DNA of 64,000 nt from Lingula anatina. Taxonomy: Eukaryota > Animalia > Brachiopoda. Below are positions 6,801 through 44,779 of the stretch, piece after piece. Within the stretch, counting starts at the first letter, position 1; every line of letters begins with the position of its first letter. The notes under the pieces were generated by a model, which was not told the origin of the DNA, made no database searches, and saw only the letters and a list, made by a program, of their open reading frames with translations. The stretch is from the NCBI GenBank assembly GCA_051362555.1, contig CM120641.1, positions 16,368,001-16,432,000 of the forward strand, in the 5' to 3' direction. A program made the translations under genes and the position numbers.

Positions 6801-9800
6801 ACATATGACTTTCGGTCAGCCATCTGTAGAAATTTTTCCCATAATTCCTTCGGTATGGGAGATATTTAGCATTGAATTTCCAAAAATTTTGACAAGGGTG
6901 CCTTTCGACGAGTGTCATGCCAAGGGCAATGCACCGACTGAGACAAAAATACCCAGGGGTTCAAGTTGAGATTATACGTGACTTAAATCCAAGAGATGGG
7001 CACACAGGCCCATGCAGTCTAGGAGGAGAAGCGGTAATGGTGACTTGTATCCCACGACACCCTGCGGAGCCAACGGAGCTTACGGAGCCGGCGGAGCCGT
7101 ACGAGACGGGTCGTGACTAAAACCATGAGTACCGCCAGCGTAGACGCTGGTGGTACTAATAAATGAGATGAATATTTTGCATACATGATAATATATTTCT
7201 GAATCAAGATGAACCAACCCCACATAACAAGGAATTGTCTTAATCTGCAACTCTTGTGGAATAAACCCCATTTCACTTTTTAAAAAATTCAACTTTACAT
7301 CCCAATTTCTTCTATGACAGGCAAATTCCAAATTCTCACCCTGACTAAGACACTGGTTCAGCAAGGCCACCTGTCCTGACACCAGGTAGAGCTTCAGTCT
7401 GGCCAGGACACTTTGTAACGACGGAATGGTGATGAAACAGTAGGCAGCACATGCCTGGAAAATCACAAGCAGATTTTTGTTCAACTGGGGTGATAGAAAA
7501 ATTCCCCAAAAATAAAAATAAGCAAAATAAATGGCTTACTATATTTTCCCTTACATATTCAGCCCAAATTAGGATTTGTTGATACAATCATACATACTAT
7601 ATGTACTTTAAAACCAACAATGGTTTAAGTTGAAAATACTCTGAAAGGCAGAATTGTTGAAATATTCATATTTAAACATAAGTAAAATGTGTAACTACAT
7701 ATTTCTGAAGACATAAATGAGCAAGACTTACTCTAACAAAGCTTGCAGTCTTCCTTGAATGTTTTCCTTTTACCACATCTCTGGTTTCCACTGCTAATGT
7801 ATTTACACACTGAAATAACAAAAAACATTCAAAATTCAATGAAAAACAGCTGAATAATGGAAATTGGAAAAGCATATATATGTGTTATTATCATGCCTTT
7901 ATCAGAGAATGAATCACAATTCAAGTGTGTGTGGCCATGCAGTTGACTATAATATCAACTCACCTCCACCAGTTCAACCAACACTGCATCCAGATTGCTG
8001 AAGTTAGCCCTGGCCTCCACATAGAAACTCAACTGTTGCTCAAAATCACGACCAAAGGATATCTTCCTTACAAACCCACATATCAACCCACCTATGGCTC
8101 TTACTTCATCATCCAGGGTCAGGGCACTGCAAAAGTAAAGTGCAAATTAAGCAGTATGTTTTTAAACTAATCTTTACTTGGTTTAATATGTTTAGTGTAG
8201 GAGAAAATCTCTTCCCCTCCCTCCCTCTCTCTCTCTCTCTGCCATTAACACGAACAACCTTAACTTGTGTAAAGACAACAAAAGCCTCACAATTAACTCA
8301 CTTGACAGAATCATGCATAGTTTTGCAGATGAACATCAGGGCATTGATAATGACAGGATCACTTGTTGCCTCTGCCTGGTATCTTAGAAAGGGGAAAACT
8401 AATAATTAATACACCAAACAGAGAAAAAAATCAATAAATACATGTACTATTTGTTGCAAGTTAAGATTTAAGACAGGTTGATTCTTTTATTCCCTTTTAC
8501 CAAAATGTAAATAATTTTTTATCTTTAATTAAACTGTTTCTTTTGAAAAACTCCAGAACATCTGTCTATTATTTTTGTCAGCTTACTTTACAAAAGCCTC
8601 CATGATGCTTTTACAGACTTCCACCTTCACTATCTCTTTTTGAAATAAGTCGATAAATGGAAGAAATTTGTCCTAAAAATCAATCAAAAAACTTTATCCT
8701 AAAGGATCAAACATTTTTACTTTTATTCATTACTACAATCACTGTAAAACAGAAAAGTATATATTTTCACATTAATGTTTGCTTTAAAATAAATCACAAT
8801 TGGTATAGCTTTTCTGAAATGATATGGTGGCCTTGAAAAAGGCCTTTTCAGTTAAAAATCAGACACATTACTCCGACTGTGGAAAACATATGCCATACTG
8901 AGATCTCTGTAGTGCCTCAGCTTCCTCAGACATTCTAAGTGCATACTCTTGAATCATCTGCTTTACACCAAAGAGAGTGGTGATCTTGAGACGAAGGCTG
9001 TAGCGAGATGCATGTCTACCGGTCATTGTAGCTCTGTAGTAACGTTGCTGGAGACCATAGATGTGGTGGTCTAGCAGCTGAATTTGGTGCAGAGCTTTGG
9101 AGAACTTGGCATGCATAATGGTCAGTTGATCTTCAATGTAGTCAGGATCTGGCATCTGATCAATATCATCAGAGAAAACCTCGGAATCAGACAGATCTGA
9201 TTCAAAGCTGTCACTGTCAATCTGAAGAAAACTTGTCTCAGTTTCCATTTTGGCAAATTGGAGAGAATGTAGAGAACTGCTATCTTAAGAGAAAGCTGAA
9301 TCTCGAGTGATGAGTAGTCTCAAAGTCACAGCTCTTATATCCATACTTGCTGGACTGGAGGAATCTTTAATGTATTATTTTAGGGGAAAGAAAATGGCTT
9401 CATCAGCTTGAGGCTTCCACAGGAAGAGTTGTAACTAAAAAGAAACTGCTGAGGCAATTAACAAAACAACTAACTACCAGTCAATTAAGACTGATACGCC
9501 TGCCAGTGTTCTCTTAATCACCTGCAAATTGATCAAAGGCTGACTACCTGTCCAATTACCTTGGCCAGAGTGTGGCTGTGAATCACAGGTATATGGCCTC
9601 AAGTATATATCCAACAATGAAAATAATTTTATTTTAATCCTATCAATAAGCAAGTAAAGAAATAAATCAAGATTCATACATTTATCTGACACTAAATCCA
9701 TACATTATACTAAAAAATTCAAGTTAGAAAAATGGAGGTTGTCCCTTCCCTTGAAGAATATTAGTAAACAAAAGGCCCCCTCATTTGGATCTTATATTAA

Positions 9801-12800
9801 AATCTTATTTTATAAATCTAATCAATTCTAATGTTACGAGCTTGACTCACAGTGTATCAATATATAAATTTCAATTTCTAGCTCGTATTTCAACAGACAG
9901 CACTTCAGGCCTTTATCTAAACATATTTTGTTTTATATTAAAAAAAGATTTTAAATCATTAACATAAAACTTTTATAAAAATGTTTGCTCTTTCTTTAAA
10001 AAAACACATTTGTCCATGTAAATCATAAAGCTACTGTTCAAAGGTGCTAGTATCAAAATTAAACAATTTACTTAGTTAAATATTTCAGTCAAGCTCACTG
10101 CAGTTATCAAATTGATCTATTTACAGGTAATGTCTATATATTAACTCTGTTCAGATGATTGGGTGTAAGCCCAGTTAAGATCTGTTAACCTGTTAAACCT
10201 GTTAACCTATAACCTCTTTAACCTTTTGATCATCTGTGGATACTGATTAAAATTTCTTTGAAGTGTTTTACTGGTATGCTACATTCACTGTTCTGCTTTT
10301 GGAGGAAACCTGGTATGAAGCCATAAAATATGTACCACTATAATACATAGAGAAATACTGTGCCTATAAAAGCTACAAAATCTGACTAAATTTTCATCAC
10401 TTGAGTTCAGTTCTCTCTTAGACAACAGTTCTCCATATTCTCTCCTGTTTGCCAAGATGGAAAACCAGGTTATTCTTCAGCAGAATGACAATGACCAGTG
10501 GCTGATGGAGAGTTTTGAATCAGACGACACATCTGTATTTGAAGGCTTCTCTGATGACAGCTGGATTGAAGAAAAACATGAAGAGCTAGATCCTGACTAC
10601 GTTGAAGATCAACTGACTACGATGCATGCTAAATTTACAAAGGCTTTGCATCAAATGGAACTCCTGGACAACCACATCAGGGGTCTGCAGCAACGTTACT
10701 ACAGAGCTACAACAACCAGTAGACATGCATCTCATTACAGCCTTCGTCTTAAAATCACCACTCTCTTTGGTGTGAAACAGATGATCTATGAGTATGCACT
10801 TCAAATGTCTGAAGAAGCTGAGGCACTCCAAAGATCTCAGTATGGCATTTGTTTTCCGGAGACACAATAATCTGTTTGACTTCAACCTCAAAAGGCCTTT
10901 TTCAAGGCCACCACATGATACAAGAAAAGCTATACCAAAATGATCAACATTGTCTTTCAATAAAGCTTGCTATAATGAATTTATTTCAGAGAAAAAGAAT
11001 TATTATTGATATTTAAAGTTTACAACTTGAGTATTCTAGCAAAGATAAGTAAACAAACAAACAAATATACAAATAAATAAATCAATAAATAAAATGTTAA
11101 AAGAAACAAGTGAAGGAAGAAATGAATGAATAAACAGATAAAAGAAGGGACAAATAAACAGAAATTTCCTAACCAGTGAGAAGAGTAATGTGAAGTCATG
11201 TATGTGGCTGAGGACTTTGGTAACTATGGACTGCAGCTGGGGGTAGTAATCCTCAAATGCTCGGTCAGGGGTCATGTGCTTGATGACATCATTCAGGATG
11301 GTGTTGACTTCCCTTTTCTAAAAACAAAAGAAGTACAACAACAACTTCATAAAATATCAGAACTAATAGAGGTAGAGATCCCCTTTGTGATAAAATATAC
11401 TGTATCAAAGTTGGGACAAATAAATAACAATCTCAAAGAGATTTTTATACAATTTCAACTAGCAAATTCTATCACTGACTACATTAACTCGACTTCCCCT
11501 TGACTTACTGAGAAATGTTTGGCAACATATTCTATCCACACTTCTGCACAGGTGATGTAATCCTGTAATAAAAAGGATTGGTGATAATGCATGTTTGACC
11601 AATTTGAAATTGAATGTGATGACTTAAACAGACAAGACTCAATGATGCTCTAATAAAAAACATCCATAAAGAAACAATGCAGAAGAAGACTAAGTAGCAA
11701 CTTTATATAAGATGTTATTGTACATTTCTTTAAAAAAAGCTCAGTTATGGAAACTTGCTAAATAAAAGGTTTGTATTTTTCTTGAATTAAAAAAGGACTG
11801 CATCAGATTTATTTGGTACAAAAAACAAACATATCAGTTCTGCTTTTCTTGTAATTCAACTTACCAACGGATTTTTAAGTTTCATAACAACTTTCCACAC
11901 TTCATTCAACACAGCAAGTCTTTGGTCTTCAGGGGGGCTTGCTAGCACTAAACATCCACCCAGACTACAGTATAACATGTGCTGAAACAGAAAACCGTGA
12001 CAATAAAAGTCAGTCTGTGTAGCACGGAAGTTTATACATAACATATAAGATCAACCACTGTAGGGTACTTAGTACAATTCCTTTCTTTTCAGTCCAGTTT
12101 TAAATCTAAAACAGATTTTTATCCCAAATCTTTAATGTTGGTCTGGATCAAAACTCAAGAATTAGACTGATTACACAGCCTTAACACATTTGATTTGGAC
12201 CATTTCTTCTTCCCACCAACGATCTTCTACCTTAGGGAATCCAGTCTCCTCACACTCTCTGATCTGCTCTGTAAACTGCACGGCTCTGAAGGCTATGTAC
12301 TCAGGTTTGAAGGCAGACATGATGGAATTCAACAGCAAAGCACTGAAAATAATATAGTACACAACCTTTAAATAATATGATGTGTGGTTCTACAGGCATA
12401 TGAGTGCACTGACAATTGACCAACATTAAAAAATATATATTTTTTACGCTAACATTATTTTGTGAAGAATCAAACAGTCTTTATATAACTAGCATCTGTT
12501 TCATTTTGACTGTGTAATTTCAAATACTCAGTAGGAGAATAATGAACAAGTTAACTGAATGATACATGCATGCATTATATTTTAAAAACAAAATCAACCT
12601 GTTAAACAGTTTCTTGCACTTTTCCAGTATAGTCTGCAGTGTGTTCTCTGAGGCCCTGTGAGCAATGCACTGCAGGATCCAGTCCAAGGCAGGACAATAC
12701 AGGGTCAGGTACCGTGGCATCTCTACCTTCTGCATGGCCAAGGTGTTCTGGACATGGTCACTTTGGAGCTGAAAAAGATAAATATTATACACTGATTTTA

Positions 12801-15800
12801 CTGTAAGGCTAAAAAAGTCCCATTAAAGGTAAATCAGGGTCTCGTATCTCGAAAACATCGCGTATTGGGAATAGCGATATCACATAGAGGCTACAATGTA
12901 TATATGGGGCGAGTATGGGCGAGTTATGGAATCGAGACCCTTGCGCACGGTCGCAATGTGCTATGCTTTCGAGATACGGGGCCCAGCTATTATTTTTTGT
13001 ATAACAAAAACCGTAGCCATTAATGCCATTTAAGATACAAAACCCTATTACTTAAGAATCGAGACCCTTGCGCACGGTCGCAATGTGCTATGCTTTCGAG
13101 ATACGGGGCCCAGCTATTATTTTTTGTATAACAAAAACCGTAGCCATTAATGCCATTTAAGATACAAAACCCTATTACTTAAGATACAAAACCCTAAACT
13201 ATTACTGTAACATTAAAACATCAATTTCACTAAAAGGAAATTTACAGAGTGAAACAGCTTCATACTGATACGATGTAACAGGTTACACAGTTTTGACTCA
13301 GCACAGCAATGACATCATGGTATTCTTATAAATATGATGCTGAAAAGCACCTTGATGGTAAGCACATACCTGTGAGTAACATGCCAGGAAATCATTGAAG
13401 CAGGGCATCAGATGATCACGGATGTTGGGTGCAACAGCTATGCCAACCTGATATAGTAAACAGTATTGTTTCTTTTTAATAAAACATACTTACGTAATAC
13501 AAAAGTGATAATTTGAAAAGAATTTTCCAAATGTATTAAAGAAAATAAGTGTTTATACTCTTAAACTGCTCAATCTTTAATTCAAATCAATATTCATGCT
13601 TATTAGTCTGTTTAAATTAGTATTTTCATTTTCAGCCTAAAAGAGATACTATGTAAGATAATTGTATTGGGCACATCAGAAAGTAAAATGTTGACAATTT
13701 TACTGAATTATTACATATGGACAAAAAAGTACTTAAGCATTTACATATATACATACATACATACAACTTTAGGCTTTGAATAAGGTCTGTTTTGGCAAAA
13801 TGCATAAGTGATTCAGAAGATGGAAAAAATGTAATCTAATAAGGTTATTAATATAATTACATTTTGCCGATTTCTACTGATAGTGTATTTCCTACCTACC
13901 CTGCTGAGATAACACCTTGCGTAGATTCCCACTAGTGGGTCTCCCATGCCACGGGTCATGTCTGCCAGACGACACAGGGCAGCCGAATACTCACTGGAAG
14001 TTAAATGCAGGAAATATATGATTATGACATATTGATAATAAACCAATATGATATAACACATTTTTGAATAAAATTTAATACGACATATTTTTGAATAAAA
14101 TTTATGGCAAATCTTTCTTTCTGAGCTTCTTCTATCTGTTAGAACTTTTATATAAAGATCCTTCAAGAAACTTCATCTCAAGATTTTTTTTCATCTTTCT
14201 AAATTTTCAAACATTTTGTATTAACCACATACTGCACCACATTAACACTGGTGTAAAACTGACCTGGTGTCTAGAAAGCTGTAACATTTCAAGATGGCAG
14301 TTTCTACATAAAACCTTGGGATCAGTTCCCTAATAGATGCAATCTTGAAAAACCAATTTCTACAAGTTTCTTTGGCAGAGTCAGGAACTTGTTCTGGTGT
14401 AAAATTCTCTGAAAAGAAAAATAATCAAAAATACAAAATATGGATAAATGACCATCATCATCCAGTGTAAAGACTAAAGCTTTAAATGTAACATTTAATT
14501 TACTACTCTCCTTTTTTTTTAATTCTATATACTTTTCTTTTTTCAAAATACAAGTTTTTTAACAACAAATATTCTCTACTAAATGACATTTTAATAGGAT
14601 AGCCAAAAAGACAGAGCAATTCTCCATGCTGATCACAACTGCTGTGTTACCTGGTAGTTGTATAGGCATTGAGCTGCCAACTGGAATGTAATTACTCTTG
14701 CTGCGAATACGTTCAAATACCAGCTTGCCAAATGTATCTAGGATGTCTGTGATCAGAACAAACTTGCTGGGATAAAACTGGATCACATTGGTGTCTGACA
14801 GCAACTTGGAGCACTTGAAAAAATATAGTATTAGTTTACCAATCACATACTGGTACAAACACAGATTACAGGATAATATCAGGCAAAAGGCAATATCAAG
14901 TGAACAGGCTAATTCAATAAGACAATCACCTAAATGTAGCATAATTTTTTAAAACTTCCATCAATTCACATCCAAAGACTGAGCAGTCAATGCTTGTATG
15001 AATTGTCTGTAAAACAAAATCTACCTGTATAGCAATCTTGAGTGCCTTTACTCTCTGGTCCTGGTCCCATGCATCTATCAATGCTTGGTTTAATTCATCT
15101 ATTCTGTTTACATACTCCTGCTGGCTCAAGTCAAGCATTTCCTGCACTGAGCCCTTACCATGAAATATAGGTCAGAATGTCACATTACCATAAAAAGCAC
15201 AGGCTATGTAAAATAAACCAATGTGCACCTTTTTTAATTTCAAAAATTCGCAAAATATAATGAACAAAAGTTTAACGATTTATCATGTAATCCTTGAACA
15301 ATGCAATAACATTAACAACTTATAATAAAACATTGTCTATGCTACATCTGATACATTAGTTTTTGCAAGAACATAATTACCTCTTCAAAGTCATCCAGTT
15401 GCTCAAGTCTATTTTTCACCTTATCTGTCACTGTGCTCTGTGCCTTGATGACAACTAAAACAGTGAGAATATAAAAAATGTTGCAAAAAGAAATGGAATG
15501 AGAAACTTAGTTTCAATCAATATGAGGTATTAACTTCATTTAACAGCTGATGCTTGAGAACTCAAAAACAAAAATTTACTAATTTCCTTTTTAGCTGCTG
15601 ATTCAGGAAAATTTTGAATTCATTTTAGGCCACAAAAGAAACATTTTCTTTTCACAATTTAGAACTATTTAATAATTAGTGTGCCTCATTACACTCACCT
15701 CTGTCTTTTTCATGGGCTGACAGGAAACTTGTTGTAATGGTCAACTTCTCTGAGGTAGTGTGTTTGGTCAGAATACTCAGCTTTTTCACTGACCAAGGTT

Positions 15801-18073: not shown

Positions 18074-18607
18074 ATGGCCAGCTTGAGTGAAGATGTGAAC
18101 TTTCTTCCCATTATTTATGACATTATTAAAAGGTACTGTTTGGTTCATAAATTGTACGTGATTGAAGTCGATGTAATTTATCAAAGTTGCAGTTTCTGTT
18201 GACTTTGGATTCTAATTTAGATTGATTTTAAGTAAAGACGAAAGGATGTACATTGCAAATAAAGCAAGGCAAGGATGTTTAGCAGGTCAGAATTTGAAAT
18301 AAGAATACTTGTTTACTGGTTTGCTATTTACTCTAATGGTTTATATTGACTTGAGTATCAATTTATTTACCATACCCACACTTTCTTTTCCAGCATTGAC
18401 AAAGATTCCCATGATGTTGGCACCAAAGTGAATGAATTCAAAGTGAAGCTGCAGAAAGCAAAGGACCAGACTGAAAAGCTCCCAGGGATAGAGTATAGCA
18501 AGGAGGATCAACTAAAACAGCTAGACATTCTGAGAAAACAATTGATTCAAAAGACGGAATTACTTCAGAAATACAAAAATCTGTGTAACTTTGATATCCC
18601 AAAATAG
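18074..18607 (+). CDS. MED9: Mediator of RNA polymerase II transcription subunit 9 (2 exons: 18074-18132, 18394-18607; an in-frame ATG also lies at 18065)
   Basis: Not in the ORF track. Spliced translation MASLSEDVNFLPIIYDIIKSIDKDSHDVGTKVNEFKVKLQKAKDQTEKLPGIEYSKEDQLKQLDILRKQLIQKTELLQKYKNLCNFDIPK* matches MED9 hallmarks (FLP..IIK..DKDS, PGI..S.E.Q..QL, K.ELLQKYK.LC.F.IPK). Confidence 0.9.
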
Positions 18608-18661
18608 CAAATACTCTTGTATTTTTCACTTTGAATTGTTCAGCGAAGAATTAAGCTCAAG

Positions 18662-19189
18662 ATGTCCAATGGCACATCAGAGGAGGAATTCCATCCTATA
18701 TTTTCCAGAGATCCAGCAGAATTTGTTAACTTCGTAAATAAGGAAGTTTGTGTAACATTAGAAGATGAATCTCAGCACATTGGCTGGGTGTACACCATTG
18801 ATCCAGTCACTGAGAATATCATCTTGGTAAACTTCATCAATGGTGAAGAGAAACTGGAACTTCTCATGGGTCATGCTGTTAAAGATATTGTTATACTGAA
18901 CAGTAACAAAGAGACCCACAAAGCTGAGTTAGACCGTATGTTCAAGTTGCAAGTGGTAACACAGCTGACTCCAGAGGAGATGAAACAAAGACAAGAAAAG
19001 TTAAGATGTTGGTTGATGAAACATAGAATCCCAGTCCAAACCACAGACAATGAATGTTTGAGTGTCTCTGATGCTCTCGTAATAGAACCTCCCTATACAG
19101 CAGAGAGTTGCAGGAGCACTAATGAAATTGTTCTAGGAAGGGTCCAGGGACTTATAAAAAATATGCCTGACCAGGTGGACGATTGGTGA
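18662..19189 (+). CDS. GEMIN6: Gem-associated protein 6 (SMN complex, Sm-like fold), intronless CDS
   Basis: GWVYTIDPVTENIILVNF..MGHAV, LRCWLMKHRIPV and IEPPYTAESCRSTNEIVLGRVQGLI are Gemin6 motifs; AATAAA at 19434. Confidence 0.92.
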   Translation: MSNGTSEEEFHPIFSRDPAEFVNFVNKEVCVTLEDESQHIGWVYTIDPVTENIILVNFINGEEKLELLMGHAVKDIVILNSNKETHKAELDRMFKLQVVTQLTPEEMKQRQEKLRCWLMKHRIPVQTTDNECLSVSDALVIEPPYTAESCRSTNEIVLGRVQGLIKNMPDQVDDW

Positions 19190-33572: not shown

Positions 33573-43236
<9,664 letters not shown>

Positions 43237-44779
43237 GTTTTTTCTTCCTGTTAATCCCTATATAACCTAAAAAAATTTGGTTATTCATTATTCAGAAATG
43301 TATTTTAAGAAAAAAAGCAGGTTTACATAATTTTGTATGATTCTAACATGCTGGTATGAGACCAGTGTCAGATCAAGTGTAATTTTCACATTTTTCCCAG
43401 CATTTTACTTAATTTTTTGCATTTCTCTGAAAAAAAGATTCTAACCATAGATACATTTAATATGTACAATGTGGGCTGAGATGCCTGGAAGTGTGTATCA
43501 TGAGAAGAAAGGTACACTGTTGCATGTCTGCATAAATAGGCACACCTGGTGATTAACAAGAATGAAAAGCAGCAAATTTTGAGTTTGTTCAGAGAAGTGT
43601 TTTTTCAAGAACATATTTAAAAGTTAATAAATATGAGCTTTTCCTTCCAAAATGAATTTTTATAATAAAAAAAAATCCCCTACTCATGAATTATTGCTCA
43701 ACCTGTCCCTGCATAGATTTGATGTTTTATTACATTATTAATTGAATAATCTAGGTTTAATGACTGGCCAGTCTTTAAGAATTACATATGCCTTCCTGAC
43801 ATTCACAAGACACTTTCTGGGCATGGCATCATTCTCACTTGATAACACAAGAAAACGACACATTGTTTTTTTTTCTTGTACTGTGTATAAAATAGATGGT
43901 TTTTCTTCTTGCATGAAGTTGAGAGATGTGACAGTTACCACATTGCATGCTGAATGTAATAGCAATATTAGGCACTAGTATGTTTCTAATATGTTTCTGT
44001 GGAGCATTTTCAAATGTATGCAGGATGCACCTATGAATAATATAAAGGAATTTAGAAATAACTATAAGTAGATAGTATAAAATTAATTTTTTAAAAAATG
44101 AGGGTGTGGCATGAAAATATGATTCTTAAAAGTATTATGAATGCATCAAAGAATTTTCCAAAGCAATATTTACTATGTCATGCAAATTGGTACCACAATG
44201 AAAACTTTTCATCAAAATTATTCCATCTAAGTTATCATACTATCAGCAGTATCACTTAAATCTGTGTTTTGAACTTAAATAATTAATTTGGTATCCCTTT
44301 AAAAATATTAAATATAAGTCCATTTCATTTGTCAGAATACACATCTGAGTTTTACCAATATTTTGGCAGGATACAGATACCAACATGGGCAGTTCGGGTT
44401 ACAACTTTCTGGCTCTTACATTACCACCAGTATAAATCCACATGCAAATAGATTTTGGCTCCTTCTATATACAACCACAAACAAGTTACTTAATATACAT
44501 TCAATCTTTAATAAAGATATACCCCCTTTCAATAATGAAAATGTTACTTAATTCTCACTCTGTAATGTGTTATTTCTTATCTTGTAAGAGCAGGGCTTAC
44601 TTTCTAGTACATATGTACTGGAAGAAGCAAGCATTGTCGTTTGAAAGGGAAGATAATTCTAATCAGCAATGGCCTGCGCAACTAATCCGCAAAAATGTAA
44701 ACTAAAATACTATAATATAATCTAAGCCCAAATGGTTGTAATTAACAAAATATTAGCTATTCCTAATCGATATCTTACC

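Follow-up and report, generated by a model that had tools for sequence, protein, structure and literature searches.

Two intronless non-histone genes with histone-type 3' ends in a VPS35L intron of Lingula anatina, probable clients of SLBP/U7 processing

A 64,000-nucleotide (nt) stretch of Lingula anatina DNA from contig CM120641.1, referred to here as the window and used as the basis of all coordinates, contains two related intronless genes, A and B, within a single intron of VPS35L, and each is followed by the stem-loop and purine-rich downstream element characteristic of replication-dependent histone genes. An Rfam scan of the 64 kb returned exactly two matches, both to RF00032 and located one behind each stop codon on the coding strand. 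The two genes are probably non-histone clients of the SLBP/U7 pathway of histone mRNA processing, a reading based on the sequences of the pair and of their relatives.

Gene A (8868-9248, minus strand, the strand of the host gene) encodes 126 amino acids (aa) with an acidic N-terminus followed by a predicted helical hairpin and an isoelectric point (pI) of 4.8, and gene B (10457-10870, plus strand, antisense to VPS35L) encodes 137 aa with a pI of 4.6. They lie head-to-head with 1208 nt between their start codons inside the intron at 8673-11173 (minus strand), whose GT..AG termini fall at 11173 and 8673 and whose spliced joint is spanned by reads in 8/8 RNA runs examined, and two host exons matched human VPS35L (E 6.7e-20 and 8.1e-17). 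These coordinates agree with the original prediction of two head-to-head open reading frames (ORFs) of 126 and 137 aa about 1.2 kb apart in this intron. The same prediction had counted 15 differences over the C-terminal 93 aa, mostly third-position changes without a frameshift, and comparison of the last 93 codons gave 15 residue differences, zero indels and 12, 5 and 29 changed bases in the first, second and third codon positions, respectively. The nonsynonymous and synonymous divergences (dN and dS) were 0.097 and 0.60, with a dN/dS of 0.16 (bootstrap 0.075-0.31; Fisher p 4.6e-8) that is not near 1 and upholds the purifying selection earlier suggested for the pair. Genes A and B are real genes under purifying selection, and their being chance ORFs is ruled out by this ratio. 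A third family copy was not found in the window by tblastn.

The stem-loop of gene A (8829-8844, minus strand) has a 6-bp stem and a 4-nt loop and is identical to that of gene B (10894-10909, plus strand), both being 16 nt long and starting 23 nt past the stop codon. The RF00032 matches covered 8804-8849 for gene A (35.1 bits, E 1.8e-6) and 10889-10934 for gene B (38.2 bits, E 1.2e-7), the gathering score of this family being 34. A purine-rich element resembling the histone downstream element (HDE) follows at 8800-8816 (minus strand) for gene A, where 14/14 bases (8800-8813) are the same as in gene B, and at 10921-10938 (plus strand) for gene B, as placed by alignment with gene A. With block limits set by eye, identity between the two genes was 24/26 in the stem-loop block, 6/10 in the spacer, 14/14 in the downstream element and 7/35 beyond it, and 9/32 fourfold-degenerate sites were changed, a pattern by which the stem-loop and the downstream element are conserved beyond the neutral level. 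The distance from stop codon to stem-loop is 23-31 nt as the metazoan norm in the available text of bioRxiv 10.64898/2026.10.14.759114, and the 23-nt distance, the G-C pairing in position 2 of the stem and the U in position 3 of the loop of both genes fit the metazoan norm. The gene A stem-loop and downstream element (8800-8849) are in the sense orientation within the VPS35L pre-mRNA, so that cleavage of the host transcript at this signal is conceivable.

Likely core promoters were read from the sequence upstream of both genes. The candidate for gene A (9306-9339, minus strand) comprises a TATA-like box at 9332-9339 and an initiator-like 8-mer at 9306-9313, and the candidate for gene B (10365-10401, plus strand) a TATA box at 10365-10372 and an initiator-like 8-mer at 10394-10401. 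The 8-mer is identical between the two genes and the TATA-like boxes, located 91-92 nt upstream of the ATG in both, are similar. Genes A and B resemble replication-dependent histone genes in being short and intronless and in having a likely promoter of the TATA type, a purine-rich element and a stem-loop of 16 nt that starts 23 nt past the stop, and their family resembles them in its multicopy or tandem arrangement and in having relatives that adjoin H3 and 5S genes. They differ in that the product is acidic (pI 4.6-4.8) and is predicted to form a two-helix hairpin rather than a histone fold. Classification of A and B as histone or histone variant genes was rejected, as the product has neither a histone fold nor a histone Pfam match.

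The stem-loop and purine-rich element direct SLBP binding and U7-guided cleavage and tie the mRNA to S phase, according to the available portions of PMC5011920 and PMC13525598. Under the proposed explanation each gene would be transcribed from its own TATA promoter, and the SLBP/U7 machinery would cut the mRNAs a few bases past the hairpin, near 8824 for gene A and near 10914 for gene B. The mRNAs would be left without a poly(A) tail in the manner of histone mRNAs, and expression would be coupled to DNA replication or to rapid early divisions. Cleavage would best explain the conservation of the downstream element, because this element is absent from a mature mRNA that ends at the stem-loop.

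The 3' ends of relatives were collected by comparing one peptide pattern with metagenome contigs, from which 96 stretches were confirmed and 80 kept, representing 78 loci and 82 family ORFs; the pattern misses the window pair, so that typical members are favoured in the sample. The profile core was spanned in one frame, with no coding introns, by 77/82 ORFs. A strict stem-loop pattern, fixed beforehand and requiring at least 150 nt of downstream sequence (5 ORFs dropped), was found behind 26/77 relatives as compared to 0/77 on the reverse strand and 0/64 upstream. A looser stem combined with an A-rich downstream element, requiring at least 200 nt (10 ORFs dropped), was found behind 46/72 relatives as compared to 2/72 on the reverse strand, 0/55 further downstream and 0.13 in shuffles, and a positive occurred in 35/56 clusters at 90% identity and 9/18 clusters at 70%. 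The stem began 14-102 nt past the stop codon and the element lay 11-15 nt past the stem, with 12-13 nt separating the two behind the histone H3 genes that neighbour two of the relatives (L016 and L026). An alignment of the 46 positive ends had two-sided changes in 4/6 stem pairs, and 94% of cells paired. In 50/78 genes a candidate ATG was preceded at 45-150 nt by a TATA pattern, versus 13% of random windows, and the count of 50 is inflated by the several ATGs tried per gene. In a quick tree of the relatives, signal-positive and signal-negative members each fell in several clades. Paired tandem stem-loop-like hairpins were noted behind three family genes (L038:1355-1440, L049:580-640 and L075:1566-1680), and the L049 gene is seemingly frameshifted close to its end.

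Expression was assessed in eight RNA runs of the same species (X1-X5, X7-X9), in which the labelled libraries were poly(A) or oligo-dT. At 95% likeness the ORFs were without reads in X1, X4 and X7 and had a trace in X2, host exons being read, and coverage in X4 dropped steeply towards the host 5' end as in tailed libraries. At 80% likeness the oligo-dT run X9 covered gene A at a depth of 0.3-4 in bins 8746-9396 (about 8 reads with 2-3 starts), and these reads carry ten fixed differences, indicating an allele or a close copy. At the same likeness X3 had approximately one read pair on gene A and one in the spacer, and X5 had none. Four X8 reads were less than 90% identical to gene B (10513-10884), a sign that this species expresses at least one further, third copy. 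The near-absence of reads on A and B where VPS35L is read fits what is expected of an untailed mRNA.

The same counts bear on the idea that A and B are silent or nearly silent leftovers of a family active elsewhere in the genome, which we regard as highly improbable. It would account for the runs with nothing on the ORFs (X1, X4, X5 and X7), for the background-level traces in X2 and X3 and for the X8 reads on gene B, which at below 90% identity would come from the third copy. Leftovers would not be expected to retain open frames with a dN/dS of 0.16 and intact promoter and 3' signals, reads do occur along gene A in X9, and poly(A) selection is stated for, or apparent in, the libraries.

Several observations weigh against SLBP/U7 processing of A and B or against a link of the pair to histones. 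There is an AATAAA downstream of both genes, at 8722-8727 (minus strand) about 100 nt beyond the stem-loop of gene A and at 10959-10964 (plus strand) 50 nt beyond that of gene B; the former may be a fallback poly(A) signal or chance, and the latter a fallback signal or chance in AT-rich DNA. The X9 coverage reaches bin 8746-8838 and possibly continues beyond the predicted cut, the scarcity of reads is just as compatible with genes that are silent in the tissues sampled, and no RNA 3' end was observed for A or B. The VPS35L intron is spliced normally in 8/8 runs despite the gene A signal in its sense strand. Among the relatives, the looser pattern was written after the sequences had been viewed, stem pair 4 is mismatched in 15/46 rows, and the rows used for covariation were picked by that pattern, a choice that by itself makes stem position 2 and loop position 3 invariant. 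Only seven matches at the Rfam gathering level were found in the 78 loci, all of them following a family gene on its coding strand; this threshold also missed three real H3 stem-loops and therefore under-counts. By pattern 26/72 relatives are without the signal, including the H3-adjacent L036 and the 5S-adjacent L010, which implies that the protein does not require the histone-end route everywhere. Lastly, the window has no H3 gene within its 64 kb, and fold searches yield no clue to function.

Part of this evidence would be explained if the hairpin served SLBP-based translation or stability, or were a relic, with the mature mRNAs mostly polyadenylated at the AATAAA, so that A and B would be ordinary genes or genes with two modes of ending, an alternative that is judged unlikely. 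The AATAAA at 10959 and 8727, the X9 oligo-dT reads that may pass the stem-loop, the presence of many homologues on contigs of approximately 0.5-2 kb that are perhaps poly(A) transcript assemblies, and the 26/72 signal-negative relatives, eight of them with an AATAAA within 150 nt, would agree with such an ending. The downstream element, however, is kept at 14/14 bases between the copies and at a fixed 11-15 nt in the 46 relatives, and a relic would have decayed at a dS of 0.6. An AATAAA within 150 nt was found in only 2/46 signal-positive relatives as compared to 8/26 signal-negative relatives. Histone-type cleavage is the preferred and probable reading for A and B.

The proteins encoded by A and B belong, on sequence grounds, to a lophotrochozoan family typified by K1PH20 and are not orphans. 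An exhaustive HMMER scan returned 261 cluster representatives at E <=0.001, the best 150 of which were taken further; phmmer matches reached E values down to 1e-13 with best identities of 34-46%, and a profile search gave 164 proteins, 120 of which were inspected. Among the matches listed, the named animal relatives were uncharacterised proteins of the bivalves Mya, Mytilus, Dreissena, Mercenaria, Ruditapes, Mactra and Magallana and of the nemertean Tubulanus, most records being nameless. Examples include Magallana gigas K1PH20 and K1PXN9, Mya arenaria MAR_001626, MAR_001628 and MAR_001631, Mytilus VDI40954.1 and Tubulanus polymorphus LOC141898434. An alignment of 137 of the 150 relatives together with A and B (139 rows; 13 mostly long relatives were omitted) had a near-invariant core of R80, Y81, A84, Y94, R97, G105 and Y113, each present in at least 90% of rows, and gene B carries all seven residues.

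The window pair shares this conserved core with the other K1PH20-like members but is divergent, sits on a long branch and carries at its N-terminus the acidic tract that is C-terminal in most members. The tract was C-terminal in 52/139 and N-terminal in 12/139 aligned members, and by its placement the window pair is atypical for the family. The N-terminal acidic motifs SFESD and FSDD that had been put forward as conserved are consequently not family features. Longer forms were sought among 7996 scored candidates and amounted to three proteins: two models from clams, in which copies are repeated, and one from a mussel, whose long N-terminus is unrelated. The Mya arenaria gene models P0305 and P0306 (MAR_017187 and MAR_017188) are strings of many near-identical family copies, and the clam repeat models are probably tandem arrays fused by annotation. 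An informative domain fusion was rejected, the three longer models being read as annotation joins.

No Pfam match above cut-off was obtained for A or B and no Pfam family was common to the members, at most 4/139 of which had weak coiled-coil matches; a histone match was absent for A and B and from the 25 families shown for the 139 members. Searches with gene B alone returned nothing from the PDB sequences, the word-indexed search or Atlas, a profile search of the PDB gave a best E of 0.005 to a generic coiled coil, viral contigs contained no family relative and PHROG gave one weak match among 42 members. The pair, to which the original prediction could assign no known domain, matched no characterised family or transposon protein in the Pfam, PDB profile, viral contig and PHROG searches.

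An AlphaFold model contained antiparallel helices at residues 46-86 and 90-129 and a low-confidence N-terminus, with a mean predicted local distance difference test (pLDDT) score of 84 and scores of 96-99 across residues 51-120. The fold is predicted to be a plain two-helix hairpin, in agreement with the helical hairpin of the original prediction. Foldseek gave no match at E <=0.001, and VIA-align Z scores of about 11 were tied across unrelated proteins, mostly with 2-20% identity. Antiparallel hairpins of 80-90 residues are also found in the ESCRT-III/PspA core, the ING N-terminal domain, the LSD1 tower, the seryl-tRNA synthetase arm, the SMC coiled coil and prefoldin, and the model lies within a root mean square deviation of 1-2 A of many of them; the searches singled out none of them, however, so the shape is generic and kinship is without support. 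The turn region (residues 78-100) has a net charge of +5/+6, the family median being +6, and conserved hydrophobic positions occur off the heptad core at 64, 69, 94, 98, 106, 109 and 113, the heptads having been assigned from sequence rather than from model coordinates. The homodimer prediction, run without use of the alignment, scored 0.01 and speaks neither for nor against a homodimer.

The role of the protein was considered separately from the processing of its mRNA. It is possible, though only tentatively proposed from the acidic tract, the basic tip, the multicopy genes and the H3 linkage, that the product is a chromatin accessory. In the most speculative form of the explanation this accessory would be made alongside histones, with the acidic tract shielding histone charge, the arginine-rich hairpin tip touching DNA or the nucleosome and the second conserved hydrophobic face binding a partner. 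The histone chaperones nucleoplasmin and NAP1 also carry an acidic disordered tract on a folded core, as A and B do, but differ from the pair in predicted fold and have no sequence match to it, and neither is known to use the histone mRNA end. A non-chromatin adaptor with the same timing is considered equally likely. Such a protein would use the histone-type RNA route, the borrowed end allowing unstable mRNA to be made in a brief pulse while embryonic or germ cells divide. It would act as an adaptor or inhibitor in another process. It is in line with the lack of a histone fold and of a specific fold match, with the switching of the acidic tract between ends among members and with the stem-loop-less members in several clades, whereas the H3 and 5S linkage and the near-identical tandem copies of a clam resemble histone dosage logic and an acidic tract with a basic tip would suit chromatin.

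A histone H3 gene was located approximately 1.1-1.4 kb upstream of the family gene on the same strand in L016, L026 and L036 (3/78 loci, most contigs being shorter than 3 kb), and 5S rRNA adjoined L008 and L010 (2/78 loci). These five loci form one supported clade, within which L008 has the stem-loop, L010 and L036 are without it, and L016 and L026 had none in 77 and 135 nt, lengths too short to count. Several copies of this H3/5S clade are without the stem-loop that the neighbouring H3 has. Linkage of 5S and histone genes is described in mussels and a snail in the available text of PMC13525598, and mollusc histone clusters hold intervening non-histone DNA according to that of PMC12210499. A third histone stem-loop was not found in the window by Rfam. 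Same-strand tandem copies occurred at 3/78 loci and a divergent partner at one (L051) of the nine relative loci with more than 1.7 kb of upstream sequence, and the head-to-head layout was accordingly rejected as a rule of the family. The histone connection suggested earlier is stronger than had been guessed, given the stem-loops of the pair and the relatives beside H3; the likeness to H2A/H2B and H3/H4 pairs was not sustained, as A and B are two copies of one protein, not different proteins, and their arrangement is no family trait.

Nesting of the family in introns seems to recur, as relatives were located among exons of formate-tetrahydrofolate ligase/MTHFD-like (L031), glycogen debranching enzyme (L044) and major facilitator superfamily (MFS) transporter (L071) genes. 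A selfish or mobile gene of transposon or virus origin that uses the histone end for expression within introns would account for the many dispersed and tandem copies of the family, for the relatives among exons of unrelated housekeeping genes at these three loci and for the long branch of the window pair. We consider this origin quite improbable, since no transposase-like Pfam match was found among the 150/183 neighbouring ORFs scanned and no terminal repeat longer than 10 bases was present at the ends of the VPS35L intron, the place where repeats were sought. The absence of relatives from viral contigs, the single weak PHROG match among 42 members and the dN/dS of 0.16 also argue against it.

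Other observations were made elsewhere in the window. At 18395-19189 (plus strand) the last Med9 coding exon (PF07544, E 8.5e-17) stops 54 bases before a same-strand intronless Gemin6 ORF, leaving no room for a separate promoter, and a bicistronic or shared transcript is possible. A long acidic low-complexity exon at 41440-43257 (minus strand) has no Pfam match and begins with MGCGSS, a start typical of lipid-anchored proteins. An exact 127-nt tandem duplication at 12929-13182 in the host-gene region is either real or an assembly artefact.

According to the available text of PMC4604434, no cellular mRNAs other than those of histones are known to be without poly(A), and crosslinking and immunoprecipitation (CLIP) in human cells did not reproducibly identify any SLBP target outside the histones. 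Neither the family nor non-histone animal genes with a histone 3' end were described in the literature searched, which covered few subscription journals. Non-histone and mollusc terms had no match in the available part of the preprint cited above, an extra ORF was not mentioned in that of PMC8382920, and the family motifs were absent from four supplementary files of PMC7441323.

A broader interpretation, put forward as a somewhat doubtful one, is that molluscs and their kin have an overlooked companion of the histone set: a non-histone chromatin protein with a hairpin fold, encoded by multicopy genes in or from histone-5S clusters, processed by SLBP/U7 and produced in step with histones as DNA replicates, its poly(A) members being the counterparts of variant histones. 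If so, the family would have escaped notice through its under-representation in poly(A) sequencing and the fusion of its arrays in annotation, and poly(A)-based mollusc embryo atlases may miss the whole gene family. With the gene A signal placed in a normally spliced, unrelated pre-mRNA, nature has set up a comparison that could tell whether U7 cleavage depends on the promoter or on the RNA signal. If the processing proposed for A and B is true, a conserved non-histone family with the same end signal would break the rule that only histone mRNAs are without poly(A). It would also make the entry of genes into the SLBP/U7 pathway directly testable and draw attention to a replication-linked protein that has gone unstudied in a large animal group.

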